From the NCBI GenBank assembly GCA_973895155.1, contig OZ316896.1:10902795-10966794 (forward strand): a stretch of DNA of 64,000 bases, written 5' to 3'. How positions within the stretch are numbered: position 1 is the stretch's first letter; the number at the start of each line of letters is the position of its first letter. The translations under genes and the position numbers were made by a program. The notes beneath the pieces are model-generated. The model saw only the letters and a list, made by a program, of their open reading frames with translations, was not told the origin of the DNA and searched no databases. The stretch comes from Marsupella aquatica. Taxonomy: Eukaryota; Plantae; Marchantiophyta. Positions 23,072 to 49,871 of this stretch are shown in pieces.

Positions 23072-23338
23072 AACCCCAATTTAAGGAAAACCGAACTTTG
23101 GAAATTCCGAAAATCACTAAATATTATTATTTTAATAAAAAGGGGGCGACATGACGCGTGGCTGCGCGTGAAACCCTGAAAATGACTGCAACATCACATT
23201 TTTACCAATCCAACTTGACGGGATCAAGAGACATGCTCACGCGAATAATAATAATAGAGAAATAAATCTTTGAGATCCTTTATATATGATAACCAGTATA
23301 TAAGGAGTTTACAAATAGTTTCTAGAACGACATACAAA

Positions 23339-24067
23339 TTAATCTGATCTCATGCCGACTATTATTTTGGAAGCGTCCAAAATTGGGCGTCTATTAAATT
23401 GCTCTACTAGATATCTATCTCCATGCCTCTGAATCACAGGGTCTTCCCATAGAGTATGATTATAATCACAATCTCTTAAAATAGATTTAACTGACCAATC
23501 TGGATAATCTCTTCCATTGGCAATGACAAGCGGCTCACAAGAGTTTGCTAGCTTGCTAAGATACAAAATCAGCAAGTTAATCAGGAAACTATCGTCGACC
23601 GATCCAAAATATTTGGGCAGAAATAATGATCCAACAACAGGATCTAAACAAGCATGAAATGCATCGGATTCGATAAGCATTATATTTTGCTGCAGATACG
23701 CCTTCGTATAAATTCCAACCTTCTCAAAACACTTCAAAAATATCCGCTTATTTGATGTCACCCCATCGCATAAGTAATAATGAGACTGATCCCAAATATA
23801 CTTAAATGAGGCCATTTCCATCGCAATAAACATAGATGCTAAAATCTGATCTAAAAGGTTCTTCCCAAGAGAGGATCAGATCCCTACATCGAAATTCTCA
23901 AAATAGAATCTCAAGAGTTCGTGAAGATGAGGCCTTGGAAAAACGTATATATTCCCAATCCGAATTCCAGTTGAGACCGCCATCAGTCGGGAATGCGGTG
24001 CAGTGTAACAGAGTAGATGCTCCACGTCTAAAACTATGAGTCCATTTTCTCTGCTGCAATGAATCTC
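23339..24067 (-). pseudogene. Cargo gene exon: FCP1/NIF-like HAD domain 3
   Basis: After acceptor ctctacag: EIHCSRENGLIVLDVEHLL..FPRPHLHELLRFYFENFDVGI*SS..FKYIWDQ..IMLIESD. One premature TGA at the conserved W (23876-23878). Confidence 0.8.
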
Positions 24068-24138
24068 CTGTAGAGAAACACAAGAAGATGCATGAGCCCG
24101 TATGGATGTAGTCACGCGAATGGTCGCGTCACATATTA

Positions 24139-25166
24139 CAGAGAAAACATCCTCTACACTCTGGCCATTGATAAGTGACGTCTGTTGAAGTGCTTGATAA
24201 GAACTTGATCTGCATGTCTCTGCACGTACAGATGCTCCCATATATCCTCGTTCAGATCCCAATCTCGATGTAGATTTCTAATCGACCAGATGGGATAATC
24301 GAACTTGTTAGCGAACGCAAGACAAAGCCTTGAATTTGATAGCTTTCGTAAATATGGAATGAGGTCATCCCTCAAAAAGACATCATCCAACGATCCTTGA
24401 AACGACTTAGCGAACAATAATCCGCATACAACTGTCTGGCATGTATGGGAAGGACAGGCATCAATCTGGATTATATTCTCTGGTCGATAATCTTGAAACA
24501 TATCACGTAGTCTCTTGATAGATTTGAAGACAACAGTCTTATAATTTTTCTTCACATAACCAAGATTCCAGCAATGATCCCGCGTGAACACATATATCAG
24601 CTGCGATAGGTCGGTGCTCGACAACACTTTTGAAAGTATCTGATAAACCAGTTTATCGTCGAGAATAGACCAGACCATCACATCAAAATGATCATAACAG
24701 AATTTTATAAGATCATGAAGATGCGGCCTCGGAACGACACATAGAGATCCGATACGAATTCCGGGTGTCGACTTGAGCTGAGGAGTATATTTTGAAACAG
24801 AGCACAGGAAGTCTCGGGGGTCTCACTGTATGGATGTCTCCCCATCACCTGCGACGTTTTTAGGCCTCGGACCCCCTAAAATGTAAGAAAAAAAATTATT
24901 TTTTTGACCCCTATAAAGTTGGAATATTCTCAGAATATTCTCAAATTTTGGTTATAAAGACGCTAACGTTCTTAGAAGTCCCAAAATTGGATTTAAAAGA
25001 CCCTATTGTTCTTCTCAGAAAATTCTTAAGTCTTCCCTTCGAACCAATAAAATGACCCTATACTTCGTCGCACGTGATATGTCATTTTTGTGGAAGTGAA
25101 ACCCCCGAGCAGGAAGTTTTCCAGTCCTAAAACTAGAAGTTGACGCGACCTGCTCCACTTAGACAC
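24139..25166 (-). pseudogene. Cargo gene exon: FCP1/NIF-like HAD domain 2, interrupted by a MITE
   Basis: After acceptor tttacag: VSKWSRSRQLLVLGLENFL[MITE]CSVSK..VPRPHLHDLIKFCYDHFDVMVWS..NIIQIDACP. Removing the MITE and one TSD restores the frame. A 1-nt frameshift lies near 24175. Confidence 0.82.
24813..25109 (+). mobile_element. MITE copy C (297 bp) with perfect 8-bp TSD
   Basis: TIR ctcgggggtctcac / gtgaaacccccgag (13/14); TSD caggaagt at 24805-24812 and 25110-25117. Confidence 0.95.
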
Positions 25167-25183
25167 CTGTAAATGAACAATTC

Positions 25184-25658
25184 TGTTGGGTATTTACTCT
25201 TACGTCTAGGTTAGGTATGACGTGGTTGGTACAACAACGTGGGTTGGTATAACTACGTGGTTAGGTACAACTACGTGATTAGGTACAACTATGTGGTTAG
25301 GTACAACTACGTGATTAGGTACAACTATGTGGTTAGGTACAACTACGTGATTAGGTACAACTATGTGGTTAGGTACAACTATGTGGTTAGGTACAACTAA
25401 GTTGCACACTATATCATAAGAGGCATGTGTGCTTGGAGAGGTAGAACCAAGGCTCATTGTTATGGAGCCACTTGAGAGATAGGGAGAGCTTACACTGTGG
25501 AGACTCGGTATAGTCGACGGGCTTAGAGTTCAGTAAAGCTCTCTTGTGTGTTCCCGTGGACGTAGCCTCAAGGAGGTGAACCACGTATCTCTTGTGTCGA
25601 CTATTGTGCGTTGGATGGTTCATGGGCTTGCCGTTGCGATCATCGTCTATGCTCAACA
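25184..25658 (+). repeat. Copia 5' LTR with internal 18-bp tandem array (ggttaggtacaactaYgt x ~9)
   Basis: tgttggg...gctcaaca; near-identical to 31313-31787 (one T/C difference seen, at 25250). Confidence 0.97.
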
Positions 25659-25660
25659 AT

Positions 25661-25672
25661 TGGTATCAGAGC
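25661..25672 (+). promoter_or_regulatory. Primer-binding site (tRNA-iMet)
   Basis: tggtatcagagc 2 nt after the 5' LTR. Confidence 0.95.
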
Positions 25673-26812
25673 ATGCTTGGGAGGTGACGTGTGTTCGTGA
25701 CGGGATTTCATGATGGTTTTTCCAGCGTTGAGTGTTGGTGGATTTTCCAGAGTTCCATCGCATGGAACTTGGAGTTTATGGGCTCAACGGATAGATCAGG
25801 GCAAGAGCTTTCTAACGATGTGAAGAAATCATTGAACGGAGCTCGTGGTGCAGAGAGATCTAAGTTTTCGTCGTTCTGGATTTTGTGAAGAAAGTTGGCA
25901 ATCGACTCGGAGGGAGAAGCGTCAAGTGTTTTGACTCAACGGAGAGATTGAGGCAAGACGATTGTTTTTGAGTCCGGGATTGGCTCTTTGATGCAAAGAG
26001 GAAGGCTAAGCAAAATCAATTACCTTGTTGGACTTGGTGACGGCACCAAGTGCAATTGATCAACATTCGTTGTTGACAAGGTACCATTTTTTTCTCTTTG
26101 AAAAACTGATTCGAAATTGGCTATGGCAATTGAGAGAAATCTGTCATCTTTACCAATTTTTTTCTCCCTCGTTCTTTCCTTGTTTTGGGTGCTTCTTATA
26201 TCGATCTTCATCGCCTCGGAGTCTAGTTTCCAAATCTGAAATCGGATCTTGATTTAGTCAAAACCCGAGTGAGATATCTTGCGTTTGGTGTCGAGGGGTA
26301 CATTCTGCCGTGTGTATTTTCTGCGCGCGCGACCAGATTTCGACGACGAAGGGTGGTAGGGGGTTTTGGGGGTTCGAGGACACATGTCAGCCCCTCGATT
26401 GTTCTTCCAAAATTCCCACAGGGCCTGTACAAGGGTCATAGAATATTCCAAAAAACCAGAGAGCTATTTTTTGACCGTCCGACAAAGATTTCATCCGCCG
26501 AACGGTAACTTTTTTGGTTATTTTTCGGCGAGGTCGTAGCCATTGAAGTTGGCAATGCAGCGCACCAATCACATCGCAATTCCGACAACGGGTTGTACTT
26601 GGTATTTCGGTTATTCCCTGAGGTGGTCAAAACGGGGGAGTTTCCCAAGGTTTTACCCACCTCGACCGAAATTTGAATAACTTTTCCGTCAAATTTCGAT
26701 TTTGATTTCGGTTTTCAGTATTGGACTCCTAGCTTTGTGGGCTACGCGGCGGTGTTGAGTTTCGAGTTTTTTGAGAAGTTGTGAAAAACAACATTTTTTG
26801 TGACTTTCTCAT

Positions 26813-27847
26813 ATGAGTGATTCGGAGGAGTTTTTCGAAGACGTGGAACTTGAAGCACGAGGGTCACCGCGGAGGTTTCAGGGGCAGAGAGAGGAGCAGG
26901 AGGAAGAGCACGTGACACCGATACCATCACCGGTGCGGCATGTGGTGGAGGAAGCAGTACTACTACCGGAGCTCACGGTAAAGAAGAAGATGGGGACTTT
27001 CAAGCTTGGGGGACCCAAGTATGAAGTGACAAAGTATGATGGGCGCTCTGACTACTTGCTATGGGAGAAGCAGGTGAAGGGAGTGCTTTATGCGTCAGGG
27101 ATGGGCCAACTGCTGAGCCCTCGTGAAGACGATGTTGATGAGAAACAATGGGACCGCATGCAGGAGCAGGGAGTGTGGTGTGTTACACTCTATCTCATGC
27201 CTCCCATCATCAAGCAGTTGGGTGCACATAAGGATTGCATGTCCTTATTTGCGGAATTGCAGAGCAAGTATCACCGCAAGGAGTTGTCGAACCGGCTCTA
27301 CACTTCCTATAAACTGATGAGTTTCAGGATGAAGGAATCTGGTACGAAGTTGCAAGACCATGTGGATGCTTTCAACGACATGGTCGTTGACTTGGAAAAC
27401 CTTGGGGAGACTTTGAATGATGAGACGAAGGCTCTGCAGCTTCTTAGTTCATTGCCTCCATCTTACCAGTCCCTATCACGAGTGTTGTTGCATCGTGATA
27501 GGGATACCATTTCATACAATGACGTGGTAAGTTCTCTGCTTAGTGATGATCTTCAGCAGAAGATGCAAATCACGTCACAGCCTTCATCATCTGGTGCTGC
27601 CCTCAATGTTAACCGTGGGAGGAGTATGCAGCGACCAACTGGGGACCGTAGAACCCAGTTTAGATCTAAATCCAGATCTAAGTCCAAGGGTAAATCCCCT
27701 CAGAGGAGGCAGGTGACATGTTGGAAGTGCAACCAAGTTGGACACTTCAAGCGAGACTGTAAGGGAAAGGCAGCGGAAACTTCATCGGCAAATGTGGCTA
27801 GGGCTGATGGAGAAGCTGATTTACTCAATGATGAGTATGTTTTATGA
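26813..27847 (+). CDS. gag: Copia Gag (UBN2-like domain, CCHC zinc knuckle)
   Basis: KYDGRSDYLLWEKQVKGVL and CWKCNQVGHFKRDC. Ends at TGA 27845-27847, in frame with pol. Confidence 0.93.
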   Translation: MSDSEEFFEDVELEARGSPRRFQGQREEQEEEHVTPIPSPVRHVVEEAVLLPELTVKKKMGTFKLGGPKYEVTKYDGRSDYLLWEKQVKGVLYASGMGQLLSPREDDVDEKQWDRMQEQGVWCVTLYLMPPIIKQLGAHKDCMSLFAELQSKYHRKELSNRLYTSYKLMSFRMKESGTKLQDHVDAFNDMVVDLENLGETLNDETKALQLLSSLPPSYQSLSRVLLHRDRDTISYNDVVSSLLSDDLQQKMQITSQPSSSGAALNVNRGRSMQRPTGDRRTQFRSKSRSKSKGKSPQRRQVTCWKCNQVGHFKRDCKGKAAETSSANVARADGEADLLNDEYVL

Positions 27848-30800
27848 AGCCGGGGGTATGCCCTATGCACGTCATCTAGGAGAGCAGATGATGTGTGGAT
27901 TCTTGATTGTGCTTGCTATTTTCATATTTGTTACATTCGTGAGTTTTTCAGTTCTTACTCTATTTCAAACGGTTCAGTTCTGATGGGAAATGATCACTCC
28001 TGTCAAATTGAGGGAATTAGGTCTGTGAAGATTCAAATGTTTGATGGCGCTGTGCGCACAGTGTCCGGAGTCAGGTATGTACCTGGCATGCATAAGAATC
28101 TGATTTCACTCGGTGTGTTGGATTCAAATGGTCATCAATGGAGCGTTATTGATGGTGAACTTCAAGTCAGGTCGGGAGAGACAGTGATTTTGAAGGGGAG
28201 TAGACAAAAGAATTTGTATGTGTTACAGGGCAATACTGTATGTGGAGAGGCCAATGTAACCAAGTCTCACGAGGAGATGACTCAACTGTGGCATTCACGG
28301 CTAGGCCACATGAGTGAGAAGGGTTTGGCTATCTTACGGAAGAATGGACTCATTTCTGATTTGCAATCTTGTAAATTAGAGTTTTGTGAGCATTGCATTC
28401 TTGGAAAGCAGCATCGTCGTGCTTTTGGTGTTGGAACTCATCGTTCCAAAGCGGTTCTTGAGTACATACATAGTGACGTGTGGGGTCCATCCCCGACTCC
28501 CTCACACTCTGGAAAGTTGTACTATGTATCATTTATTGATGATTACTCAAGATTTGTGTGGATTTATTTCATGACGCATAAGTCTGATGTCTTGTCCATT
28601 TTTAAGAAGTGGAAGGCCCAGGTGGAGAATCAGACTGGAAACACGATCAAGTGTTTGGATACAAGGGTGAAGAGTCTGAGGTCAGACAACGGCGGGGAGT
28701 ACACTTCAATGGAATTTGAAGAGTACTGTTCAGAACAGGGGATAACTCGCCATCTCACCACAGTTTATACTCCGCAGTAGAATGGTGTCGCTGAGAGGCT
28801 CAATCGGACACTGTTGGAGCGGTCACGGAGTATGTTGAGCCAATCAGGTTTACCACAAGAATTTTGGGCAGAAGCTGTCAATACCGCAGCTTATTTGGTA
28901 AATCTTTCTCCTTCTAGTGCTATCAATTTCAAAACGCCGTTTGAGATGCGCTATAAGCGGCAAGCAGACTATCATGGCTTGGTAATTTTTGGAAGTGATG
29001 CATATGCTCTCACACCAAAGCAGAATAGGACCAAGTTGGATCCTACCTCCAGGAAATGTGTTTTTCTTGGGTACCAGAGTGGTGTGAAAGCCTATAGGCT
29101 ATGGGATCCTATTGCCTGTAAGCTCGTTGTCAGTAGGGATGTTTCCTTCAATGAATCCAGATTATTGAAGGAGGGGGAGAATACTCAGGTCTCCCGTACT
29201 GACAAAGGAAAATCTCCTATCCCGGATCTCGTTGAGGGGGAGATTGGTTATGAGGTGCATGACCGGAGAGAAGGAGTTGCTCCAATTATGGAGCTGGTTC
29301 CTGTGCCAGAGGAACCAGAGGAGTTTGTTGATGCTGGTGAGCAGCAAGTGGATGCTGTTGAGCTTCAAATTGTACCAGCACACGCAGATCAACCGGAGTC
29401 ATCGGCTAGAAGAACATCTGGTCGCACTGTACGCGCTCCATCAAGGTATGGACAGTGGGTTGATTCATCTCAACTGCAAGAGGATGATTTTACAGCTGAT
29501 GATGAGGGTGATGCGTTAATTTTGGAAGAAGGAGAACCTTCTTCATTTCATGAGGCAAGTGCTTCAAAGGAGAAGCAGAAGTGGACTGCAGCAATGCAAA
29601 CGGAGATGCAGTCAGCTAAAGGACAACAAAACTTGGGAGCTTGTTAAGCTGCCTAAGGGTCAGCAAGTGGTGGACAACAAGTGGATTTACAAGCTGAAGG
29701 ATAATTCCATAGGAGGTGGATCGAAGGTCTACAAGGCTAGATTGGTAGCAAAGGGATTCACACAAGAGAAAGGTGTGGATTACAATGAGGTCTTCTCACC
29801 AGTTGCTAAGTACTCTACAATACGACTATTGTGTGTACTTGTTGTAATGTTTGGTCTGCTCCTAGATCAGATGGATGTTGTCACAGCTTTCCTCTATGGC
29901 ACATTGGAAGAGGTGATCTTCATGAGACAACCGCTAGGTTTTGTGAAGAGAGGACAGGAGGAATTGGTTTGCAGATTGCTGAAATCCTTGTATGGGTTGA
30001 AGCAGTCACCAAGACAGTGGAACAAGCGGTTTGACGATTGGATTCGGTCACAAGGTTTTCACAGAAGTGTATTTGACCCTTGTGTGTATTTGAAACCGGT
30101 GAAGAATGTTGTCTTTGGGTTCATTGTTTTAGTACTTTATGTGGATGACATGCTAATTGCAGCCAAGGATAGGTCTGAGATTGTTAAGCTCAAGGCACTG
30201 CTTAGTGCAGAGTTTAAGATGAAGGACTTAGGGCCAGCTAAGAGGATTTTGGGTATGGAGATCACTAGGGACTTGGAGGCTGGCAAGCTATGGTTGACGC
30301 AGAGCAGTTATGCGAGGAAGGTAATTGCAAGGTTCAACATGGAGAATAGCAAGCCAGTAAGTACCCCGTTGGCTCCACACTTCAAGTTATCATCAGTGTT
30401 CTGTCCTACGGATAACACAGAGAAGGGGTTGATGTCAAAGGTTCCATATGACAAGGCAGTGGGGAGTCTCATGTATTTGATGACTTGCACTAGACCTGAT
30501 CTTGCCATGGCTATGGGCAAGGTGAGCAGGTACATGTCAAATCCAGGGAAGGTACACTGGGAAGCAGTGAAGTGGATTATCAGGTACTTGAAGGGTACCG
30601 TGGATCATGGTCTTTTATTTGATGCGAATGCAAAGAATGCTAGATCATTGATTGGCTATGTAGATTCTGACTATGGACAAGATTTGGACCGAAGGAGATC
30701 AACAACAGGATACGTGTTCACACTTGGCGGTGGATGCATAAGTTGGAGGTCTACTTTGCAGAAGTGTATTGCTCAGTCTACTACAGAAGCGGAGTATGTT

Positions 30801-31121
30801 GCAGCTGCGGAAGCAGCAAAGGAAGCGATTTGGTTGGATAGACTTATCACTGAAATGGGATTGCCACAGGGGAATGTGAAGCTCCATTGTGATAGTCAAA
30901 GTGCGCTCCACCTTGCTGTGAACCAGGTGATGGACAGCAGAGTGAAGCACATTGACGTCAGGTACCATTTTATCAGGCAGGCTGTGTCTGATAATTTGTT
31001 TGAGCTAGTCAAGATTGATGGTAAACTCAACCCGGCTGACGCATTTACCAAAGTGATTCCTTTGGAGAGTTTCTCTAGACACCGTGACGTATTGCAGGTT
31101 TTGCAATTGCATCACAAGTAG
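27848..31121 (+). pseudogene. pol: Copia Pol (protease, GAG-pre-integrase, integrase, RT, RNase H) with one nonsense and one frameshift lesion
   Basis: WILDCAC, LWHSRLGH..CEHC, IHSDVWG, RSDNGGEY, PQ*NGVAER (TAG 28778-28780), +1 frameshift near 29614, YKARLVAKG, LYVDDM, DSDYG, TTEAEY, KHIDVRYHF. Confidence 0.95.
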
Positions 31122-31302
31122 AGTTTTCTTAAACATTCATTGTAATTACTGATATATGCTCTTCCTCATTCCTATGTATTAGGCTACGGCTTAGTTCTGG
31201 TTTGCTCTAGTTAGAGAGGGAAACCGGTTTGGTTTCTGTCCAGAACTTCCCGCTGAGGGATCATATACATTGGCAGTATTACTCTCCCCTAGACCAGAGT
31301 CA

Positions 31303-31312
31303 AGGGGAAGAT
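31303..31312 (+). promoter_or_regulatory. Polypurine tract
   Basis: aggggaagat immediately before the 3' LTR. Confidence 0.85.
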
Positions 31313-31787
31313 TGTTGGGTATTTACTCTTACGTCTAGGTTAGGTATGACGTGGTTGGTACAACAACGTGGGTTGGTACAACTACGTGGTTAGGTACAAC
31401 TACGTGATTAGGTACAACTATGTGGTTAGGTACAACTACGTGATTAGGTACAACTATGTGGTTAGGTACAACTACGTGATTAGGTACAACTATGTGGTTA
31501 GGTACAACTATGTGGTTAGGTACAACTAAGTTGCACACTATATCATAAGAGGCATGTGTGCTTGGAGAGGTAGAACCAAGGCTCATTGTTATGGAGCCAC
31601 TTGAGAGATAGGGAGAGCTTACACTGTGGAGACTCGGTATAGTCGACGGGCTTAGAGTTCAGTAAAGCTCTCTTGTGTGTTCCCGTGGACGTAGCCTCAA
31701 GGAGGTGAACCACGTATCTCTTGTGTCGACTATTGTGCGTTGGATGGTTCATGGGCTTGCCGTTGCGATCATCGTCTATGCTCAACA
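31313..31787 (+). repeat. Copia 3' LTR
   Basis: Direct repeat of 25184-25658. Confidence 0.97.
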
Positions 31788-31900
31788 AATTCGATTCTCA
31801 TATTATGCAATTGCAAACAACCACGCGACCGGGCGTGTCACTCCCAAAAGTTCAATTTCAATCAATTTATAAATAATAATTGATAATAAACAATAAATGT

Positions 31901-32806
31901 TTACTTATTGGACTTATCCCGGGCTTCTATAGCACGGTCTTTCTCGGCAGATAAGTATTTCATAAATTCGTCAAACTTTTCTAAATGGTCTTTATTCCCC
32001 TGATTACGAATGATCACGTTTCTCCTCCAAAGATTCGTCTTATCAATATAATCTTTCTCAAGATTTTCTTGAGAGAACGTTGGAATCCCATATCCACTAA
32101 GGAGCTCGCAGAATGTCAACTTGTCAATTGACATGTCGCATAGATATGGATATAGTTTCTTTCTAAAAAATAGGTCATCATCGAGCCCAGAATATGCATC
32201 AGGATACAACGATAAATAGAAGTCATTAAGGCTCGTCTTATATGCAGCGTCATCGATAAGAATGACATTCTCGATGTTGTAATCTTTAATATCGGCAGCA
32301 ATGTCCGAGAGACATTTGACAAATAAAGGGATGTCATTATTATTCTTCCCAATAAGTCGAGTTGATTCTTGTCCCCATATAAATTTAATACATTTCAAAA
32401 CTTTGGGTCGAAGTATCAGCCTTACACAAGATAGAATATTCCGTTTGAACAGGCACGACCAGATCGCAATGTCGTATAGATTTGCCACCTTCTCAAGAAA
32501 TTCCATTAAATCAGGCCTTGGATAGATAACCTTGTGCATCTGTCTCACACCCCTTGACCGAATGGGCATCCCAGGGCTGATCTTCTCTGACCAGATAAGT
32601 ACCCGATTCAGATCAAAAATTACAAGTCTCTTCTAAACCGGTGACTTCTTTGCCGATGGATTAGGCGCCATCTGTACCTGTGATTTTTGTGCCGCAGGGT
32701 TTGGAGAACGTACTAGAACGGTCTGTTTGATTCCCGCCTCCGGACGATCACCGGACTTCAGGATTGGTGCCTTTGATACTCGATCAGGGGGTTTCGGGAT
32801 AGGCTT
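31901..32806 (-). pseudogene. Cargo gene exon: linker plus FCP1/NIF-like HAD domain 1
   Basis: KPIPKPP..SPV*KRLVIFDLNRVL..YPRPDLMEFL..YDIAIWS..KFIWGQ..VILIDDAAYKT. In frame with the Ulp1 exon through the GT-AG intron 32807-32892. TAG at 32633-32635. Confidence 0.85.
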
Positions 32807-32892: not shown

Positions 32893-33681
32893 CTGTACAA
32901 GACGGTCGTTCAGTGCTGGAATTCCGTCGGAAATGTCAATCATAGCAACACGGATCCCGGTAACTAGGTTACTTGCGGACGTCGGCTCGCGGAAGTCCAT
33001 GTCAAATAACGACAAGACTATCTCCTTACGGAATTTCTCAATTTGATCCGCGGAAAAATTAATTCCGTGTCCTTGACACAAGCACTTGGCATATCTCAAG
33101 ATAAACACACCACAACTGTGGCCGTCACTCTGGTGAGGAATATCATTCCGATATATCCGTTCCGAACCTGAGAGATCCAAGTTGACACCAGTTCTCCAGC
33201 CAATTTTGTCGGCGTAGTACTTCCCAACAATATCTAGCACCCCAGGATTCTGTCGATTATGAACTAGAGAATCTAGGTACTCCAGCCGTTTCTCCTTCGG
33301 ATACAAGACTACCAATGACCAATGTTCTTTCACAGCATTGTGTACTGGAAAGACCAGTTTGTCATATTCACTGATTTTTAGCGGAAACTCCTTTGTCCAA
33401 GCTGTCCTCTCCTCGTCGAAAATGGTAGGATCCATGGAGAGAAGCTCAAAATGGTGTGTTTGGAAGAATTTGACAAGGTCCGACTTTCCAACTCTATCGA
33501 GAATCAGTTCGAGAAAACTCAAATAAGCGTTAATTATATCATCGGTGAGCAACTCGCGCGGTCTCAAACACATCATATGTTTCCTCTTGATCGAGTGTTG
33601 TAAGAACTTGGTCAATAGCTCTTCCATATCCTTAGAAGGATCAAGGCATTGATCTATTCGACTAGTCAAATTTTCAAAAAA
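32893..33681 (-). CDS. Cargo gene exon: Ulp1/peptidase C48 SUMO protease domain
   Basis: LLTDDIINAYL, FPVHNAVKEHWSLVV, YLDSL, HQSDGHSCGVF. The H-D-C triad and oxyanion Q are intact. Confidence 0.92.
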
Positions 33682-38372: not shown

Positions 38373-41300
38373 TGTGATGCCTAGCCAGGAATCACTCGGC
38401 CAGTTAAGTGGGTAAAGTAGAAGTGCACCCTAGAAACACCTTAGTATAGGGACAAAACAAGGAAAATATAAACAATTAGGGGCGACTATGGAACCCTGGC
38501 CGAGGCCGGAGGTAAGGACGCTGGGGGTGAAAACAAGATTAGGGTTAGGGCGCGCTAAGCGTCGGTGGCTAGGAAGGATCAACGGAAGGAAGGACCGGAA
38601 GAGGAGAGGGGTAAGGACCGCTCGCGAGGAATAGTGGCTCATTTGCAAGAACAAACTGGGTAGACGACTACGGGAGGCCAAATGCTGTCAGCTGCTTAGA
38701 CAAGCACTCGGGGTGGGAACAGATACCAACGATCGACTCAAGGAGGGTATGAGCAACGTCAATCAAGCGGCACATTTCTGGGGATGCCTGTTCGAACGGG
38801 CAACTGAGTACATCAAGACTTACGAGGATGAAGAATTAGAAAGGGCAGCTCAAGAACGGCAGGAGCTCGCTCGATTGTGGAAGCTGCAGAAGACGGCTTT
38901 CTTAGGAGGCGAACTCATCAAGGCCGAGTTCTTGTGGACTCCTACTTCCAATCAGCTCGACGATCTTCTTTTTTGCAAAGATAGAGTCGTCGGCATCCGA
39001 GAAGCCATCAAACGCTGCAACAACATACACTTGGAGTTGAAGGGTAGCACGGAGGGGTGGACAAAGGCAGCCGTGCTAGGAGAAACCTCCACGACAGCCG
39101 AAATGAAGAGGAAGGGAGCCGTCAACGATGAAGCCACCCCGGCAAAAAGAACGAGGTCGGCGGCACCAAAGAAGCCAGCCGAGCAGCAGAGCAGGAGGCA
39201 AGGAGAAGCCGAAGAGGAGGATGATCCCATCAATGCCATTCCAACTAGGGATGACACCTGGAAAGGCTGGGCAGCAACCCTACCAGAGGAGGTGCAACTA
39301 CATTTTGCACGGGAGGAGGATGCATGCTTTACGGCCATGCAGACCAAGAAGTACCAAGGCTTCATGGCCGGATCCGGCTTAGAGGCCTTTGTAAGATTAC
39401 CATGGCTGAAGCCGGAGGTGCCGGATTCAGACCTATTTGTGGGGTCATGGGAACTCGAGACCAATTCCACGAGGATATATGGGAAGGATTTCTATCTTAC
39501 TCCCAAGGTGATTGCCGAAGTGTTTGGCTTGCCGATAGGCAATAAGACCAAAGTTGATACCAGGAAGACCTTGCCTGACAAGGAGTTCCGGTCGTTCCCC
39601 GGGCCATCAACGAAGAATGGCTTCTTCCGAAACACCTGCACCAACCCGCACATAGGAGAGATGATCGACTTCTTGCGGGTGACCATGCATTGTAACTTGC
39701 CGAGGGCAGAGATCGGCAAGGCTCAGGTCTACCTGGCAGAAAGGCCAGATCCAAGCCGGGATTACAACGGGTACCTCCTCAACCAACTGAAGAAGATCTT
39801 GAAGGAGGAACATCAGGTGATCGGCGTGGGAAGCGTGTCCCGGCTTGGCTATCACATGTCGCTATTGTGCCGGTATGCCAGAAGTCAAATCTTTGCCCCA
39901 GTACTTCCCCTATCAGCAAGAGCATCGGAGGAGGGCCCGGAGCAGACGCCGGCAACGGAGAAACCCAACCCGCCCGACAGTCCTACAATCGAGCAGGTGT
40001 TTAGGCCAAGGATGGAGGACTTGCCGATGCAGCAACCAGGCATGCAGAATCTGCTGAAATTACTGGAGAAGGAAAAGAGAATGGCAACGGCAACGACAAC
40101 GACACCAATGCAGGACACTGCTCCAGAGGTGGGCCTAAGCCGGCTTACAAGGGAAAACCCCTTTACTGGGGTCAAGGAGAGAAGGAGGCCGGAACACGAG
40201 CCGGGAGTCCGGATGTATGTCGGAACCTTAAGTCCCGAAGCCGAGGAGAAGCAGGCCGTAGCTCCCGGCCACGACAAGGAGAACAAGAGATCAACACGGA
40301 AGCCGGAGGAGGAACCAAGACCGGTGAGAGGTGAAACCGTGTTAACAACAGAACCAGGAGAACAGCGGGAGAAGCCGGTAGTCCAAGCCGAGGAGGAGGC
40401 GGTAGAGGACTACAGCAATGATGACTCCGGCTACGGGTCGGATCATCATGTTCCAGGAGTAAGGACTTGTGGCCAGTTTATCCCCACACTTCCAAGGGTA
40501 GTTCGAGGGGACCCCAACCAGCAGAGTAGCCCCGAGTCTCCCCCACCAGATGTTGCTCCCCCGAGCTTTGATGGTATAAAGCAGACGGCACAGGAATTTC
40601 AGGAGCGACTTAGGGAAGCAGAAAAGGCAGCCCTGGCTAGGGAAAAGGATTTGCCAAGAGGAGATTGGCCGGAGGACATCAGGCGGCTAGCCGAAAAAGG
40701 AAGCAAACCTCTAGCCACGATTGAAGAGATCCGCAAGACGGCTTGGGAGCAGAGGCCACGATGGTCGATGCCGATCACTTCTACTTACTCCACCTACGCT
40801 AAGAATAGAGCCGTGGAGTATGGTGAGATATGTGGAGAACTTGCGCTCGGCATCTTTGGGGAGGAGTTGGAGGTAGGACCCTTTTTCCATAGGGAGCAGT
40901 TGGAGAAGCACCAATTAGAAGAAGCGGTGGCTTTAGAGAGAAGCAAGAAGGACAAGGTCATCCGGCGGCTTAGGAGGATGGAAGCCGAGATTGAAGATCT
41001 AAGGGCGGCCAAGAAAGCCCAAGATGAACTGCGGATTAAGCGGCATGAGCTGAACATCATGCAGGGGCAGTTGGACACCGCGCAGGCTGATAATCAGATT
41101 ATCAAGGATAAACTGACTCAGACACAGGGAGAATTGGCCGACGCAATCAAGGACAGGGAGAAATGGAAGAAGGAGCTGAGAGACGCAGAGGAGGCCCATA
41201 TAGCAGTCAACAACCGGGTCACAGCGGAGATTCAGAGAAGGGAGAGGGCGCTGAAGGAAGAGCTCGAGGTCATCTGCAGAACCCTTGAGCAGAAGGAGGC

Positions 41301-43101
41301 CGAGTTAGGGAAATCCTATCAAGGGATTATTGCGCTACAGCAGGAGCTTGCGTCCCGAACGGCCAGCTTCAAGGCTGACCTGCGGGAGAAGGACGCCCAG
41401 CTCGACCAGACTTATGCCAAGATGAATAACATGGAGTCTGAGGTCGTAGCGGAGCTCGACAAGGAGCTAAGAGCAACCCAGGAGGAGAGGGCTACCACCA
41501 AGAAGGAATTGGAGGAAGCCCACAGGGAATTGGAGGAAGCCAAAAACAAGCTGGAGGAGGCACGTAAGGACCTGGATGAGACCCAGGAGGAGTTGGAGGA
41601 AATCACGACAAAGATGAAGAACCTACAACGGCGGGCCGACAACCAAACAGAGCGGCTGAAGAAACAAGCCGTAGTATTTAAATGCTTAGCTGCATCAGGT
41701 CCATCTCCCGTTGGGGCACATCATTTACCCAGGGTGGTAATTGCCGAAGGACCAGCCGTGACACACGGCCCGGTGCCGGACGTTGGCGGCAAGGGGAAGG
41801 AACCGGCTATGGAGATAGTGAAGAAGAAGAAGCGGAAACCTTCAGGGTCCGGAGGTTATTCGACCCCTCAAGCCGTACTCAAACCGGTACCAACCTCCGG
41901 CATGAACACGGCAATAGATCCCGCTAGCACCAAAGGTGGGGATGGCGCGGCCCAAGCCGAACTACTCAGTAATGAGGCCGGTATCCCAGATCCACCTCTT
42001 GAGCAGGCCAGAGAGGCCGTAGCCGTAGCCGTGAATGATTTCCGAGCCAAGGCCGAAGCCGAGGGTGGGCCCAGTCAGGCCGATGGAGAGTTGACTCAGT
42101 CAAGGACAGGTAATCTGTCAGGGAACAAACCAACGGCAGTGGTTGCGGAGGAAGCGTTGGGGGCGTCCATTGAGGATCCACCACCGGTGTCGTGACGGTG
42201 CAAGGGCGCCGTTCCTTTTAGGAAGGGCGGACGTGGAGGGAGGAGGCGTGAGTGGGCAGGGCGGGATCAGATCTCTAAGTTTAGGATTAGGATCAGGACC
42301 AGGAGGCGGCCCTGACACTTAGCTTAGTGGGATTGCGGTTCCACTGGTAAGAGCAACACTTGTACTCCTGCCTCGCTGTACATAGGTAGATCCAGTTAGG
42401 TAGATTAGGCTTACGCTGCAAAGAATTAGGCGGATCCACTACCAGGATAAGTACCTGGGCAGCGGGGAGCTCAGGGCCTCTTCTTTAGCAAGTTTTTAGT
42501 TTGCACCAGCCGGGCTAGGATCAAGTAGTAAGAGAAGCTCTCGGTTAGTCATACAATGACCCTTGTGTATATTCATGTTTCCTCATGCCTAAGAGCTGAA
42601 TAGAGTTGGCCTCACGGCTTAGTTCGTAGAGCTTGTGTATGAGATGTACTGTTTGTATGGCAAGCGCATGGTATGATTCAGTCAGAAGGAGTCATTTTGC
42701 TATTTGTGTGTCGCATTAACTTGTGTGAAGAGTGCCCACATCAACCAACAGAGGAAGGAAAGTAAGCAGGGGAGTGAGAGTTGGATGTGTCGAGCTGAGA
42801 GAGGTCTTAGCGGCTTAACCAAGCCTATTGGGGATCATTCCGGCGGCGGAATCCAAACATACCTAACCAGAAGGAGAGGAAGACAAGGGAAGGCCTAGAT
42901 TAGGCCGGCTACGTATCTCATGACCCGATGAAGGATCTGTCCAGTATATGAGTGTAAAATGTTAATAGTAGTAGTAGAAGGAGGTTAGCAGCGTCCCATG
43001 CCGCTAAGCCGCGGAAACGGCCTCGCCAAGCGTGAAATCTGCGGGAATCGGCTTGCGCTGGGGGGGTTTCTTGGGTTTAGGGAGCCATGGAACGCACCAC
43101 A
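38373..43101. mobile_element. Solo-LTR-like insertion (4729 bp) carrying a long ORF
   Basis: Starts tgtgatgc and ends gcaccaca (7/8 inverted, TG..CA). 5-bp TSD cacat at 38368-38372 and 43102-43106. The tandem unit resumes exactly across it. No internal LTR pair, gag or pol seen. Confidence 0.85.
38713..42195 (+). CDS. Intact 1160-aa protein (first ATG 38749): plant-transposon-associated domain-like N-terminal region plus long SMC-like coiled coil
   Basis: Uninterrupted 3.5-kb ORF. GLEAFVRLPW..LFVGSW..IYGKDFYLTPKVIAEVFGLP resembles domains of Gypsy extra ORFs. ~250-aa E/K/L-rich heptad region and KKKKRK NLS-like motif. Confidence 0.75.
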   Translation: MGTDTNDRLKEGMSNVNQAAHFWGCLFERATEYIKTYEDEELERAAQERQELARLWKLQKTAFLGGELIKAEFLWTPTSNQLDDLLFCKDRVVGIREAIKRCNNIHLELKGSTEGWTKAAVLGETSTTAEMKRKGAVNDEATPAKRTRSAAPKKPAEQQSRRQGEAEEEDDPINAIPTRDDTWKGWAATLPEEVQLHFAREEDACFTAMQTKKYQGFMAGSGLEAFVRLPWLKPEVPDSDLFVGSWELETNSTRIYGKDFYLTPKVIAEVFGLPIGNKTKVDTRKTLPDKEFRSFPGPSTKNGFFRNTCTNPHIGEMIDFLRVTMHCNLPRAEIGKAQVYLAERPDPSRDYNGYLLNQLKKILKEEHQVIGVGSVSRLGYHMSLLCRYARSQIFAPVLPLSARASEEGPEQTPATEKPNPPDSPTIEQVFRPRMEDLPMQQPGMQNLLKLLEKEKRMATATTTTPMQDTAPEVGLSRLTRENPFTGVKERRRPEHEPGVRMYVGTLSPEAEEKQAVAPGHDKENKRSTRKPEEEPRPVRGETVLTTEPGEQREKPVVQAEEEAVEDYSNDDSGYGSDHHVPGVRTCGQFIPTLPRVVRGDPNQQSSPESPPPDVAPPSFDGIKQTAQEFQERLREAEKAALAREKDLPRGDWPEDIRRLAEKGSKPLATIEEIRKTAWEQRPRWSMPITSTYSTYAKNRAVEYGEICGELALGIFGEELEVGPFFHREQLEKHQLEEAVALERSKKDKVIRRLRRMEAEIEDLRAAKKAQDELRIKRHELNIMQGQLDTAQADNQIIKDKLTQTQGELADAIKDREKWKKELRDAEEAHIAVNNRVTAEIQRRERALKEELEVICRTLEQKEAELGKSYQGIIALQQELASRTASFKADLREKDAQLDQTYAKMNNMESEVVAELDKELRATQEERATTKKELEEAHRELEEAKNKLEEARKDLDETQEELEEITTKMKNLQRRADNQTERLKKQAVVFKCLAASGPSPVGAHHLPRVVIAEGPAVTHGPVPDVGGKGKEPAMEIVKKKKRKPSGSGGYSTPQAVLKPVPTSGMNTAIDPASTKGGDGAAQAELLSNEAGIPDPPLEQAREAVAVAVNDFRAKAEAEGGPSQADGELTQSRTGNLSGNKPTAVVAEEALGASIEDPPPVS

Positions 43102-43891
43102 CACATGTAGTTCATCACGCGTACAGTCGCGTGAACCAATTTATCTCGTGTCTTTTGATATTGTTTATTGTAGTCGATAGCCTAGCGAATTGGCCAGAAA
43201 TCTATTTTGAAACCGAGTTCTGATTCACGCGACCGGTCGCGTTAATGTTTTAGAGGTCAGCGAAAGCTCTGCACTCTTAGACGTAATCGCCCTTTATTTC
43301 TCAGATCTTTCTGATCTCAACTTGTTAGTAGGATGACCTGTTTTTTGGGTTACACATATAGTTCATCACGCGCACAGTCGCGTGAACCAATTTATCTTGA
43401 TATTGTTTATTGTAGTCGACTGCCCAACGAATTGGCCAGAAATATATTTTAAAATCGAGGTCTTCGTTTCATCACGCGCCCGGTCGCGTTAATGTTTTAG
43501 AGGTCAGCGAAAGCTCTACACTCTTAGAAGTAATCGCCCTTTATTTCTCAGATCTGCCTGATCTCAACTTGTTAGTAGGATGACCTGTTTTGGGTTACAC
43601 ATGTAGTTCATCACGCGCACAGTCGCGTGAACCAATTTATCGCAGGTCTTTTTGATATTGTTTATTGTAGTCAACAGCCTAGCGAATTATCAGTCAGAGG
43701 AATCTCAATTTTTCCTTGATTGCAAAAATGGTTACATCAATCCCGAAGGACTTCGGATGTGGAATCCATATCCACTAGCACTATCCAGGAATTTAAGCTA
43801 CACAGTATCTATAACAAGTTCTAACTTGAACTACTCTTGAATCTGTAGTTCTAATCTTCGACTACTCAAAATATTGTTGACTTCGATCGAG

Positions 43892-44434
43892 TCAGTCATT
43901 CCAAGATGAAGGCATCCACTCATCAGTGTCTGGTGTGGATTCCCTTGAATCCAAAAATTCTTCCTTTGCCCAAGTCCTAACGTCCATAGATTTTCTCGGC
44001 TTTCTCTTTCTATAATACAAATCAGAATCTTCGTTCATCTCTAATTGCCTTTTCTTCGGTGCATCCACTTTCTTGGCCTCCTTCTTGACTGTCTTAGCGT
44101 CTGCTGCTGCTTCCCCCAAAATGGATTTGACGCATGCTCTGGCCTTCAACTTCTCCCCCCTCAAAACGGATTCCACGAGGGCTTTGCCCTTTAACTTCTC
44201 CCCTGATGCCATCTTTGTAGTCATCTCTGTCGGATTGGTCTCCATCTGATCTTCCATCGACAAATGTGGCGAACAATGTTGTCTCTCACAAAACATTTGA
44301 CCCGATTTAGTCACCGTAAACATTATATTACATCGCTGACACATTCTATAAGGAGTACCACGAATTCGATACGTCAAACCTTCTGAATCATCCATCGGAA
44401 CATCCTCATTCTTTGAGCTCAGCGGAGTAGTCAT
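43892..44434 (-). CDS. 180-aa protein with a CxxC...Cx4CxxH cluster and basic NLS-like tail; third gene of the Sola-like element
   Basis: Intact ATG-to-stop ORF, CQRC..FCERQHCSPH, YRKRKPRK; divergent from the transposase. Confidence 0.55.
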   Translation of the reverse strand: MTTPLSSKNEDVPMDDSEGLTYRIRGTPYRMCQRCNIMFTVTKSGQMFCERQHCSPHLSMEDQMETNPTEMTTKMASGEKLKGKALVESVLRGEKLKARACVKSILGEAAADAKTVKKEAKKVDAPKKRQLEMNEDSDLYYRKRKPRKSMDVRTWAKEEFLDSRESTPDTDEWMPSSWND

Positions 44435-44749: not shown

Positions 44750-45560
44750 TCAGTAGTTACTGACTGTCCGATGTCCACTCATTGGTAAACTGGTACTGTC
44801 CACTCATTTTTCCTGAGTGGAGTTGAAATGATTGTTCGTAATTGATTGTAGTCGTTCTCATTCACTTGAAATGACTGACGGACCATGCACTATCTTTACC
44901 GATATGTGTGATGCCTTTAGATCCGTAATTGTATCTTCCTGTCTCGCGCGCAATCGTATCTTACTTATGAAGTACCAATTACGAGCTAGAGTTTGGGCCT
45001 AGCCTTCTAGCTTCTACGTCGTAGACCCTGTACCCTCTGACTAAGGTCACGCGACATGCCTTTAGATCCATAATTGTATCTTCCTGTCTCACGCGCAATC
45101 GTATCTTACTTATGAAGTACCAAGTACGAGCTAGAGTTTGGGCCTAGCCTTCTAGCTTCTACGTCGTAGACCCTGTTATCCCTACACCCTCTGACTAAGG
45201 TCACGCGACTAGTCGCGTGCAGGGCAGTGCATTGACTACATTCTGCCTACTTATTGATGGTTGTGACAGGACAATGCAGTTCACGGATGTTTTACTAGCG
45301 CTTCTTAGCACTATTGTCCTCAGTAGTTACTGACTGTCCACTCATTTGTTTTGAGTGGATGTGAAATGATTGATCGTAATCGATTGTGGTCATTCTCATT
45401 CATTTGACATGACTGACGGACCATGCATAGTCTGTTGCCGGTATGTGTGGTACCTCTAGGGTCACGCGACCAGTTGCGTGCAGCGCAGTGCATTGACTAC
45501 ATTCTGCTTATTGACCGACGTGACAGGACAGTGCAGTGAAATTGACGGACGTGACAGGAC
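44750..45560. repeat. Nested direct duplications in the divergent promoter region
   Basis: ~44915-45055 vs ~45057-45210 (~145 bp), ~44751-44915 vs ~45321-45450, ~45198-45290 vs ~45459-45550. Confidence 0.85.
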
Positions 45561-45585
45561 TGTAAGCTTATAGTGATATTCTCTG

Positions 45586-48500
45586 ATGTGCAGGATCATA
45601 ATTATTATGGTGACATCGACAGTCTGGATCAGGGAAGGCGGACAAGTTATTATAGGCATACGTGAGAAACAGGTTGGAAAAGGTCGCGTGATAAGTCTTG
45701 ATCCTTCCAGGGTTTGTCACAATGTTCCTCTTGGGGCGGACAGAGTTCTTCTTCTATTGGAGGAAGTTTTTGACGAGACCATTCTATGCGAAGATGGCAA
45801 ACTTTTGAAGGACATGATTGGGGGTTACCTTGTATGGGAAAGGAATCAGCTTTTTCGAGCTCCCATGGAATCGGAGGATGTGTTTGGCACTGTTGGTGAT
45901 GATCAAGATCCAGTCAATCAAAATTCTGATGGGAACAACCATAATGAGAGTCGGTCTGGTGTGGAAGTAGTTTTACCAAAGGCCTTGTGGATGGGCATGC
46001 CTGTAAAGGTGGTGGATGAGAACAAGTTGATTTTTGCAGTGGCAACTATACATGTTCTAGATCCTATAGTGAAGCTTGGAGATGTCACCCTTGGGAATAC
46101 ACATGTGGGAATTCTGATCAACGATTTTGTCGAGGGAGCTACCATAGATCATCTGAAGCATAGAGATTGCTTAAAAGCTTGGTCGATGGACCAACTCATT
46201 GCCAAGGATGGCAACTTGTTGTCTTTCCACAACATCAGGCAAGCTGTGGGAGGGAACACATCTCCAACAAGTGGCAAGCGGTCCTACGTCCATAAAAGTA
46301 GGAAAAGAAAGAGTCCATCTTCCCAGACATCTAGAAGAGACACATCTTTGGCACGTCAAGATGTGTTGTTGATAAACACTAAGGACTGTTGTAGTGAACA
46401 TTGTTGCCAATATTTGGACCGCAACTTGGCTATGGCAATTAGGCAAAAGTGGTGGTCAAAATCTTTTGCGGAGCGCAAGGAGGAAGAAATCAAGGCTATT
46501 AAAAATACAATACACTTGGGTACTGGAGAAAGGATTCTAGCAGTGGAGGGCAAAGTATTGTGCTTGGAGGCATGGAGAATCATTCATTCAAGAGGAAAGA
46601 CTCAATTTTATGCCTTGAAGAAGACTGTGATGGCTGGAATGAACATAGGTACCCATGGTAATGCTGGAAAAAGGCGTATGTCCGAGAAAGTATCTCAAGC
46701 GTTCATGTCAATGAAAGAGATTATTGAGGAGGCAGCTGATCATCATCCAGCCAAGTTGAGAACCATGGCAGATAATACAAGGATGGTTTTGAGGGAATTG
46801 CCAACAAATCTTACTTGGGAGAATATTAGAAACAGGGTTAATGTTGTCAACCAGGAGGCTGGTCTTCCTCCAATTTCCCAACCCACCTTGAGTCATCTAC
46901 ATCAGATGTATTTCAGGGAGTTCTCACGTCACAAAAAGGGCAACAACTTTTCAAAGTGTACAACTTGTAGTGAGTTGCTTCAATGGAAAGCAAACCTTAC
47001 AGGAGCTAAGGAAGAGTTAGAGGGCCTAAGGCGTGACGAGGAGGAACATCACCAAGACCACACATAGCAAAGAATGTGCTATCATACCTGGAGATATGAG
47101 TCCATCCATCGTCCAAAGGAAGTGTTATGCCTTATTCATGATAAGATGGATCATTCAAAGACAGCTCTCCCAAGAATGCCCTTCAATCCTAAGCATGTGG
47201 ATGGTGCCCAAAAGTTCCCAATTACTGTCACTGGTATCCTTACTCATGGTCATGGTCCCAAGGCCATAGCCCAATATCATGTTGGAGTGTGGCCAGGTGA
47301 TGTCAACATCACTATTGGGTCAATTGATTCAATACTAAGGATGTTAGAAAACCCAAATCCAATGATCAAATCACTTGTGGAGGGGCCAGACTCGACAAGT
47401 CTTTTTAAAGACCTCCTTTTTGGGAGAGCAGATATCTTGGAGGCAAGTGTCCTTAGAGCATTTGAGGATGACATTGCCTACATCTCAAGCCTAGGTACTT
47501 TACTCACAATCCTTTAATTTATTATTATTTAATAATATAAGCTCACACACACTGACACTCTACTTTGTGTAGTTGTTGCTCCTCCTAGCCAAGGTTTCAT
47601 TAATAGGGTTTAAACCCTAAACCCTAAATTGGGGTTTAGGGTCTGACTAGGGTTTTATTTAAAAGCATTCTGAGATTGTTACATTGTGATGTAGCACCTG
47701 AGGCACCAAAGTTCAGGCCCCTTCCACGAGTATTGAAGCTACAACTGGATAATTGTGCCTCAGACAACAAGAACAGATATATGATGGCTTATTTATCATT
47801 GTTGACGACAAGGGAGGTGTTTGAAGAGGTTCATCTTGGTTTTATGGTGGTTGGGCATACTCATGAGGACGTTGACGGTATTTTCGGGCATTTTTCAGAG
47901 TCTATGATGCATAACCCCACATACTCATTGCCTGAGTTAATGTCCTTGTTCATGAGAGCAAGGACACCCAATGCAGTCCCACATTTTCTACAGGAGGTCC
48001 CAGATTTCAAAAACTACTTAGCTCCATTCATGTTGAAGGGCCCTGAGGCATTGGTGGGGCATTTAAAACCCAGGCTGTTTAGGTTCTATGTTCATCATGA
48101 TAGTATGCCATGCTTCCAATACAAAATGAAGTCAACTGATCAGGGATGGTTACCCAAGGAAGGTATTGAAATGCGGTCATGGAAAGATGACAAAAGTCCT
48201 CACATCCCAATTGGGGTGCCCAAACGGCTACCAATGATGGAGTTGAAAATGCTTCCTGAAGTGCTGACAGGGTTGAAGAAGCATGTGTCATTCTTTGAGT
48301 TTATTCTAAAGCGAACAAAAGAGGAAGAACCAAAGCGACGTTGGACAACTCTCATCAATTATTGGAATGACATTGTAGATACTCTACAGGGTGAGCAGGT
48401 GCAATATGAACCTGAAGGTGCACACAACTTGGAATACGGGTTTTGGCCTTTATCAATATGGAGAGAGCACGTTCCACCAGAATATCGAAATGTGGCATGT

Positions 48501-48983
48501 GAGTTGGAGGCAACAGTGGATTATGTGGGACCAGCAAAAGATAAACCTCCTGAGAGTTTTAACCCTAGGGTTGATGTTGTGAAGGGCTGTTATGTGTTGG
48601 TACGGCCGGACGACTCAGACCTGGATGTTTATCCCGTCCATATGGGGTTAGTTGTTACAAATGTGGTAGAAGGACCAGTGAATGAACAAAACCTTCTTAC
48701 TCATGTATGTGGCGTTGAGTGGTTTAGACCATTTATGGCAAAGAAACAACGTGGTCAATCAGACTGGCAGCCAAGAGAGCGGTGGGCAGATTCTTGGGAT
48801 AAGAAATGGGAACGTGATCCATCTCCAATATACAAGGAAGCTGAGACAATAGATGTTTCCTCTGCCTTGTGGTGTTTCAAAGCACGCAAAGGACCAGTGA
48901 CAGGGCTGGTAGGAATTCCAAAGAATGTTGCTGTCAAGGCAAGAGACTATCTCTTGACATGCATAGCAAGTGACAAATCCTAG
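45586..48983 (+). pseudogene. Sola1-like (DUF7869-type) DDE transposase, spliced, with one in-frame stop
   Basis: DCCSEHCCQ, FSKCTTC, LIHDKMD, ITVTGILTHGHG, LKLQLDNCASDNKN, GFMVVGHTHEDVDGIF. TAG at 47065-47067 is in frame with the next ORF. Intron(s) ~47495-47694. Likely start ATG 45607. Confidence 0.82.
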
Positions 48984-49064
48984 ACAGTAATGAAGCATGT
49001 AGTTTAGCATACAGTTTAAAAGGCAACTCAAAATAGTAGTAGCCAGAGAACTCAAGTTTAGACA

Positions 49065-49655
49065 AGTCTTATCGTCTAAGTTAGTTAGTTGGTTAGTTTA
49101 TTTAAGATATAATATTAGTTAGTGGGGCCTTAGTTTGGTGATATTATGGCATGATATTATTGACATTCAAATGAATGTCCAGTAGACATTGTAATATACA
49201 ACAATCCTATTAATAAATAATAATTATAGTTACACCCTCAAGTGAACTCAACTTTCAATGATTTCTGATTTTATATGGTTCCATGCCTGATTGAGTCAAA
49301 GCAATAGAAACTAACTAATTAAAGGGTGATACTATAATTGTAGGTCACGCACCCTGGTGTGTGTCAATCTTTTTTGTATTCAACCCTATAGTAATTAAAT
49401 AGACAAGTTAGTTAGTTGGTTAGTTTATTTAAGATATAATATTAGTTAGTGGGCCCTTAGTTTGGTGATATTAAGGCATGATATTATTGACATTCAAATG
49501 AATGTCCAGTAGACATTGTAATATACAACAATCCTATTAATTGTTGTAAAGAAACTAATTAATTAAAGGGTGGTACTTACTATGATTGTAGGTCACGCAC
49601 CCTGATGCGTGTCAATCTTTTTTGTATTCAACCCTATAATAATTAAATAGACAAT
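49065..49655. repeat. Subterminal direct duplication near the right end of the element
   Basis: agttagttagttggttagtttatttaagatataatattag... at ~49078 and ~49406; tgtaggtcacgcaccctg..gtcaatcttttttgtattcaacccta at ~49340 and ~49588. Confidence 0.88.
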
Positions 49656-49871
49656 TGAAACAATGAATGATAGTTTAATTAAGGATTTGTGCATGGATCA
49701 AGAGGTACTTTATGTCATTTAGTGATGCATTGTTATAAAGATCTTGCAACAAAACATTTGAAGTTTTTGACTATCCCACCAAATGTTAAAGAGGTTGATC
49801 ATTCATTAACTAATAATATTTAGATAAAATTGGAATTAATCTAATACTTCAGTATTCCTTAAATTGGGGTT

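Follow-up and report, generated by a model that had tools for sequence, protein, structure and literature searches.

Sola elements are DNA transposons defined by a DDD transposase, a target-site duplication (TSD) of 4 bp and terminal inverted repeats (TIRs) of 11-1124 bp; in the available text of the account describing them they mostly measure 2-9 kb, with some exceeding 15 kb, and are present in Physcomitrella (PMC10741241). Sequence-specific anti-silencing by transposons is documented in few systems, mainly that of the VANDAL elements and their VANC proteins. The short motifs bound by VANC are found in introns, between genes, in terminal regions and within tandem repeats (PMC5735166), some VANC genes carry Ulp1 (PMC13317346) and transposases are able to activate their own copies (10.64898/2026.08.24.746577). 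Ulp1 in DNA transposons is already known from Ginger1 and Mutator, as the available part of that report has it (PMC2836005). The element considered here occupies positions 23072-49871 of a 64,000-nucleotide stretch of Marsupella aquatica DNA (contig OZ316896.1, positions 10,902,795 to 10,966,794; hereafter the window). What is new is a private palindrome, the dyad ACGCG-N6-CGCGT, in a Sola-like element with a conserved accessory gene; Ulp1 cargo and Sola elements above 15 kb were known before. The reading modestly favoured for the window is a mutated copy of a 15-kb Sola-like element, in which the accessory gene and the dyads would form a self-activation system against silencing.

The element resembles VANDAL/VANC and KAONASHI (KIU) Mutator-like elements (MULEs) in its three-gene layout, in the Ulp1 domain of its accessory gene and in a short family-specific motif that recurs in introns, in terminal regions and in the tandem repeats between genes. 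The VANDAL-like layout had been put forward in an original prediction made from the window alone, and is strengthened by the restriction of the motif to the element and its presence in non-coding parts. The differences are equally clear: the transposase belongs to DUF7869, with no match to a MULE family in Pfam, the TIRs are short and the TSD is 4 bp, the motif is a spaced palindrome whereas theirs forms same-orientation arrays, and the element has three FCP1-like domains without a detected VANC domain. With Ginger1 and Mutator it shares the combination of a DNA transposon with a SUMO/ubiquitin protease, insofar as the accessible text covers it (PMC2836005), and the same pairing occurs in two homologues of the transposase (P0106 and P0172). 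There, however, the protease is fused to the transposase, whereas here it is encoded by a separate, oppositely oriented gene.

Boundaries and repetition of the element

The original prediction had delimited the element by 24-bp TIRs with 22 identical positions, a CAAA TSD and an insert-free length of about 15.2 kb, and all three stand. The inverted repeats continue imperfectly to about 60 nt, CAAA lies immediately outside both ends of the 26.8-kb span, and removal of a Copia retrotransposon, a TG..CA unit and a miniature inverted-repeat transposable element (MITE) leaves a core of about 15,157 bp (Table 1). The three coding units also agree with the prediction, with the DUF7869 transposase on the plus strand and the Ulp1-FCP1/NIF unit and a 179-aa open reading frame (ORF) on the minus strand. 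A further claim, that the flanks rejoin as an interrupted CRE ORF, could not be confirmed: on the minus strand the rejoined frame runs without a stop for no more than 41+11 codons, no relevant Pfam match was found and tblastx gave no match in 80 loci. In its motifs the rejoined sequence may resemble a decayed CRE.

Table 1. Features of the element and its nested insertions in window coordinates (LTR, long terminal repeat)
Feature	Position	Strand	Remarks
Left TSD, CAAA	23068-23071		sequence
Left TIR	23072-23095	+	AAC start; imperfect extension to ~23132
Dyad, subterminal	23154-23169		motif match
Exon, third FCP1-like domain	23339-24067	-	one in-frame TGA; no DxDxT motif
Predicted 92-nt GT-AG intron, phase 0	24068-24159	-	contains dyad at 24114
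Exon, second FCP1-like domain	24160-25166	-	split by MITE
Nested MITE, 297 bp	24813-25109		8-bp duplication; most other copies without it
Nested Copia LTR retrotransposon	25184-31788	+	476-nt LTRs; most other copies without it
Dyad, 1 mismatch	31823-31838		non-coding DNA behind first FCP1-like exon
Exon, linker and first FCP1-like domain	31901-32806	-	DLNRV replaces DxDxT; one in-frame TAG
Ulp1/C48 SUMO-protease exon	32893-33681	-	phase-0 GT-AG introns on either side
Large exon	33834-35637	-	acidic stretch, 5-residue charged repeats, then region of no family; three TAG and frame shift
Tandem array of ~250-bp units, left part	37790-38372		two dyads per unit; upstream of accessory gene
Nested TG..CA unit, 4.7 kb	38373-43101	+	5-bp CACAT duplication; 1186-aa ORF
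Tandem array, right part	43102-43690		five perfect dyads
179-aa open frame	43892-44431	-	four Cys near start, basic tail
Duplicated region between small ORF and transposase	44795-45537		dyads at 45203 and 45464
DUF7869 DDD-type transposase	45577-48983	+	Pfam E 3.6e-36; TAG 47065-67; predicted phase-1 intron 47495-47694
Right TIR	49848-49871	-	inverted-repeat match
Right TSD, CAAA	49872-49875		sequence

The status of the element as a family was judged from contigs of public sequencing runs (X1, X2, X5 and X6) aligned to the window. Contigs from the core have depths of about 660-1450 in X1 and 400-740 in X2, against 25-36 and 8-14 for contigs from the flanks, a core-to-flank ratio of about 25-60, contig depth not being the same as copy number. 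Binned depth stays level from the transposase through the small ORF to the Ulp1 and FCP1 parts, with a sharp drop at each TIR. Contigs that bypass the Copia insertion (joint 25178>31788) reach depths of 862, 482 and 15 in X1, X2 and X5, and those that bypass the MITE (joint 24804>25110) reach 631, 481 and 15; X5, recorded as a third organism, otherwise yields diverged core pieces at low depth, and X6 is thin. The depth over the whole core, its sharp edges and the insert-skipping contigs show that the accessory genes move together with the element and are part of the repeated family. Depth and the complete relatives described below support the predicted large family of repeated TIR elements with several genes and 4-bp TSDs.

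The copy in the window is itself broken, a point missing from the original prediction. It carries six stops and one frame shift: a single in-frame TAG interrupts the transposase, and the accessory gene has five stops and the frame shift. Among the best-supported differences from X1 and X2, 40 listed for each run, 32 rows inside the core are A>G or T>C (Copia rows excluded). Of these, 25 are C>T changes of this copy in CG or CHG context, compared with 33% of all C. This bias fits decay under methylation and is read as a sign of silencing pressure.

Transposase, accessory genes and relatives

Two Asp residues of the transposase are nearly invariant in 48 aligned homologous rows, and the first Asp motif is also conserved, with D(K/G)MD-x6-P in 45 of 48 motif matches among homologues; a catalytic role is inferred for each of the three. 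The model of homologue P0003 (predicted local distance difference test, pLDDT, 81) matches Mos1 (Z 8.4, root-mean-square deviation 3.9, 178 aligned) as well as integrases, and places a winged-helix DNA-binding region ahead of the core; Foldseek returned no match at E<=0.001. On this model the enzyme is an RNase-H-fold DDD transposase of the kind by which Sola is defined. Given the RNase H fold, the TIRs and the TSDs, transposition by a cut-and-paste mechanism is very probable. Residues 815-940 of P0003 form a C-terminal beta-barrel with a weak structural match to chromo and BAH domains (Z 5.7-5.8); the C-terminus of the window transposase is homologous to this region, and the barrel of the plant-type transposases is possibly a chromatin reader.

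The element shares with Sola its 4-bp TSD, TIRs within the range of 11-1124 bp, an acidic-triad transposase, occurrence in a non-seed plant and size. The original prediction had named a Sola1-type enzyme, on which the motifs point both ways. Compared by eye at positions 5-30 and 82-124 of 124, the Sola1 profile agrees in the second motif, which is in register, and in the GH motif; its first motif, DlqkvlslP..fyykrk in the available portion of the source, does not fit the D(K/G)MD-x6-P seen here (PMC5751038). The element is therefore termed Sola-like with its subgroup unplaced, and its membership of Sola is judged likely. The premise that Sola elements are small was too strong, as some exceed 15 kb in the accessible text, and size alone is consequently not new (PMC10741241). 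The Ulp1/FCP1-like accessory genes, on the other hand, set the element apart, no such genes having been found published for Sola. A search of the literature, which did not extend to Repbase or the founding Sola paper, turned up no paper that describes them for Sola or that mentions DUF7869 by name. The founding literature may already have noted extra ORFs in Sola elements of mosses.

The closest named homologue of the transposase, at 58% identity, is from the liverwort Calypogeia fissa, and others come from Riccia, Chara and Branchiostoma. In a quick tree of 145 columns, whose rows include no labelled Sola sequences, the window transposase clusters with two homologous proteins at a support of 99, and this group lies within a broader clade supported at 96. 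The predicted intron of the gene has telomere-like TTTAGGG / AAACCCTAA motifs at 47600-47645.

On the minus strand, Pfam detects a Ulp1 domain (E 1.2e-17) and three FCP1/NIF domains (E 4.6e-11, 1.9e-10 and 8.6e-4). The Ulp1 domain matches SENP1 (E 3.5e-16), with the His-Asp-Cys triad and the oxyanion Gln in place. Three introns of the accessory unit are canonical GT-AG introns of phase 0; joining the first FCP1-like exon to the second keeps the frame only if a weak acceptor is used. The FCP1-like domains resemble HAD phosphatases of the FCP1/SCP/NIF group in their Pfam NIF matches, in ESM Atlas FCP1-homology clusters (0.95) and in a weak match to UBLCP1. They differ from them in forming a tandem of three inside a transposon and in the loss of the second Asp of the catalytic motif. 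DxDx(T/V) is the defining catalytic motif of FCP1/SCP phosphatases, and its second Asp is replaced in domains 1 and 3 of the window and in the related loci L029, L050 and L061, the site in domain 2 being cut by the MITE. Since this residue is missing wherever the motif can be read, the domains are predicted to be non-catalytic. Whether the Ulp1 domain removes SUMO and the FCP1-like domains serve as non-catalytic binding modules is an evenly balanced proposition. Searches for longer proteins resembling the FCP1-like and Ulp1 domains found none, which is weak evidence. The 179-aa frame is a candidate gene, its status not being proven: it has no Pfam family, no homologue was found, Atlas leads reach at most 0.80, and its model is poor (pLDDT 48.5).

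Relatives were sought in 94 loci related to the window element. A first TIR scan gave nothing convincing, and a scan guided by the AAC termini found pairs. Both TIRs surround the transposase in five of the 94 loci (L029, L084, L088, L035 and L019), and three of the five are complete elements with AAC termini and a perfect 4-bp TSD: L029 (11,273 bp, TSD ATAT), in plant-like DNA and at the same site as L030 and L031; L084 (13,750 bp, 3784-17533, TSD TTAG); and L088 (10,907 bp, 3138-14044, TSD ATAA). A strict scan yielded 85 inverted pairs, of which just two had a TSD of at least 3 bases, both of 4 bp; it missed L029 because the TSD of that element is palindromic.

L029 is the most informative of these. 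Its left TIR agrees with that of the window at 23 of the first 33 nt and its transposase is 41% identical over the best segment. Beside the homologous left TIR its minus strand encodes three FCP1-like domains, arranged as in the window. A profile built from the window alone recovers two of these domains (E 1e-9 and 3e-8), and the third appears after iteration. Domains of this type also occur in left-end pieces of L050 and L061, with a short piece in L054. Being shared with so distant a plant-like relative, the FCP1-like gene is apparently an old component of the family and not fresh cargo. Recent capture of a host FCP1 gene is accordingly rejected as the whole story. What the original prediction called cargo is better described as an accessory gene than as a captured one.

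The second genes of other relatives differ. L084 and L088, whose contigs look eukaryotic and are filed under bacterial genome bins, have another minus-strand gene in common (E 1e-14) that matches no Pfam family; its motifs suggest a ParB-like start and a methyltransferase-like end. In L035 a 4.6-kb element (7782-12423) has 1.1 kb of left end in common with L029, followed by the transposase, and is probably an internally deleted derivative that lacks the accessory region. At the end of the L081 contig, a minus-strand frame (9323-9568) downstream of a plant-type transposase has no Pfam match and presumably resembles a methyltransferase C-terminus. L008 has a long perfect inverted repeat pair at its edge (22-14166), and no relative was found among the viral_contigs. 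Of the 73 homologous proteins scanned, two have a protease fused to the DUF7869 transposase, namely P0106 from Branchiostoma, with a C48 piece, and P0172, with an OTU domain; another homologue, P0167, is fused to ankyrin repeats.

The palindromic dyad and its possible function

The dyad ACGCG-N6-CGCGT has 13 matches with at most one mismatch, where 0.36 are expected, and all lie inside the core; none occurs in 37 kb of flank or in 11.6 kb of inserts. The spacer is strictly 6, other spacers giving at most two matches. Eight of the 13 belong to the 250-bp array. Of the rest, one is subterminal, two fall in intronic or non-coding sequence of the accessory unit, and two occupy the stretch that separates the small ORF from the transposase; weaker copies are found in a third intron and close to the right end (49595, 2 mismatches). 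A palindrome with a fixed spacer suggests a dimeric binder, and the pattern makes it fairly likely that the dyad is bound by a protein encoded by the element.

The mechanism proposed on this basis has several steps. The DUF7869 enzyme would cut the element out and paste it between its AAC-ended TIRs by a 4-bp staggered cut. A dimeric element-encoded protein would bind the ACGCG-N6-CGCGT palindromes and, once bound, could keep the promoters of the element open against silencing by methylation. The Ulp1/FCP1-like accessory gene and the palindromes together would then amount to a self-activation kit. That anti-silencing or self-activation is the purpose of the dyads and the accessory gene is held tentatively, at somewhat less than even confidence.

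A number of observations weigh against the self-activation reading. Pfam found no VANC-like domain in the proteins of the window, and the accessory unit may be two genes because of the weak acceptor between its first and second FCP1-like exons. Neither Ulp1 nor the small ORF has a match in any of the 94 related loci, L029 included. Among the four independent loci with the left TIR at least 7 kb upstream of the transposase, FCP1-like pieces are present in L029 and absent from L028, L037 and L042, most such loci being decayed. The number of independent dyad sites is only about 5-6, since eight of the 13 lie in one tandem array, and the exact dyad is absent from all 80 metagenome loci. The palindromic arrays that L088 and L081 possess are of their own kind and mostly near the ends, a concentration that fits plain binding of the transposase. 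As to the family, X1 or X2 is possibly the window's own sample and depth gives no copy number; no empty site was seen, X1 and X2 contigs crossing the junctions by only 25-28 nt; and of the two remaining relatives with paired TIRs L035 matches its TSD at three of four positions and L019 has none.

The best-surviving alternative, unlikely on the whole, regards the dyads as binding sites of the transposase for assembly of the transpososome only, comparable to the subterminal repeats of hAT or CACTA elements, with the Ulp1/FCP1-like gene aiding transposition or repair. The dyads close to the left end (23154) and, with two mismatches, the right end (49595) are consistent with it, as are the palindromic arrays near both ends of L088 and L081 and the winged-helix region in the homologue model. 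Ulp1 and OTU proteases, which are fused to two DUF7869 homologues, have in addition been proposed to act in transposition or repair, in the available part of that paper (PMC2836005). Against this, 12 of the 13 dyads lie in the interior, within introns and intergenic arrays and at distances of up to 14 kb from an end, a distribution more like that of VANC targets than of subterminal repeats.

A still less probable explanation has the dyads recruit a host transcription factor, CGCG-box binders being an example of a possible host factor, with the accessory gene carried along as a passenger that does nothing for the regulation of the element. Besides the transposase no element-encoded DNA-binding domain was identified, and shorter relatives exist without the accessory region (L035 and L019), both of which suit this view. 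It is opposed by the absence of the dyad from the 37 kb of flanking host DNA, by the conserved position of the FCP1-like triplet in a relative at no more than about 41% transposase identity, and by the intact Ulp1 triad. A last alternative, in which unrelated repeats came together by chance and the TIR and TSD are coincidental, is rejected as extremely improbable. The three nested inserts and the unobserved empty site, which speak for it, are outweighed by depth edges that coincide with both TIRs, by TIR homology with a relative in which the genes follow in the same order, and by three further complete elements with AAC ends and 4-bp TSDs.

Beside VANDAL/VANC, the element offers a concrete second candidate for sequence-specific anti-silencing. 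It belongs to a different superfamily and a non-seed plant, its target motif of 16 bp is defined, and there are three candidate proteins. Repeated evolution of such systems thereby becomes directly testable. A wider proposal is rather doubtful as a whole: the DUF7869 elements would constitute a branch not yet described, made up of giant transposons (11-15 kb) with AAC ends and 4-bp TSDs, ranging from animals to land plants and bearing a second, oppositely oriented regulatory gene. In its land-plant version an ancient triple FCP1-like protein, joined here by a SUMO protease, and a family-specific palindrome would serve sequence-specific anti-silencing, evolved independently of VANDAL/VANC and potentially reusable for targeted epigenome editing. 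Pfam DUF7869, so far unannotated, gains termini, a TSD length and a gene layout, and some of the "FCP1-homology" and Ulp1 genes modelled in bryophytes may be parts of transposons. A screen of 1007 plant genomes was restricted, in the accessible description, to elements of 2-12 kb, a limit by which elements of about 15 kb would be missed (PMC12973397).

Nested insertions and neighbouring features

The two LTRs of the nested Copia element are identical at 475 of 476 positions. The TG..CA unit has an intact 1186-aa ORF that matched no Pfam family and lacks an internal LTR pair; its depth in the runs is about 100 times that of the transposon core, and it is likely a very long solo LTR that is itself protein-coding. 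The MITE of about 300 bp occurs three times in the window, once in the element and twice in the left flank (22422-22721 and 14496-14766), and the 8-bp TSD of the nested copy is of a length that we take to be hAT-like.

The left flank also contains seven copies of another spaced palindrome, of the GACGC...GCGTC type, in a small repeat (19487-20070), and an array of roughly eight repeats of about 85 bp (13050-13730). Two host genes flank the region, one with an exon of the YbaB/EbfC family (12169-12777) and one with a GRAS domain (60673-62844).

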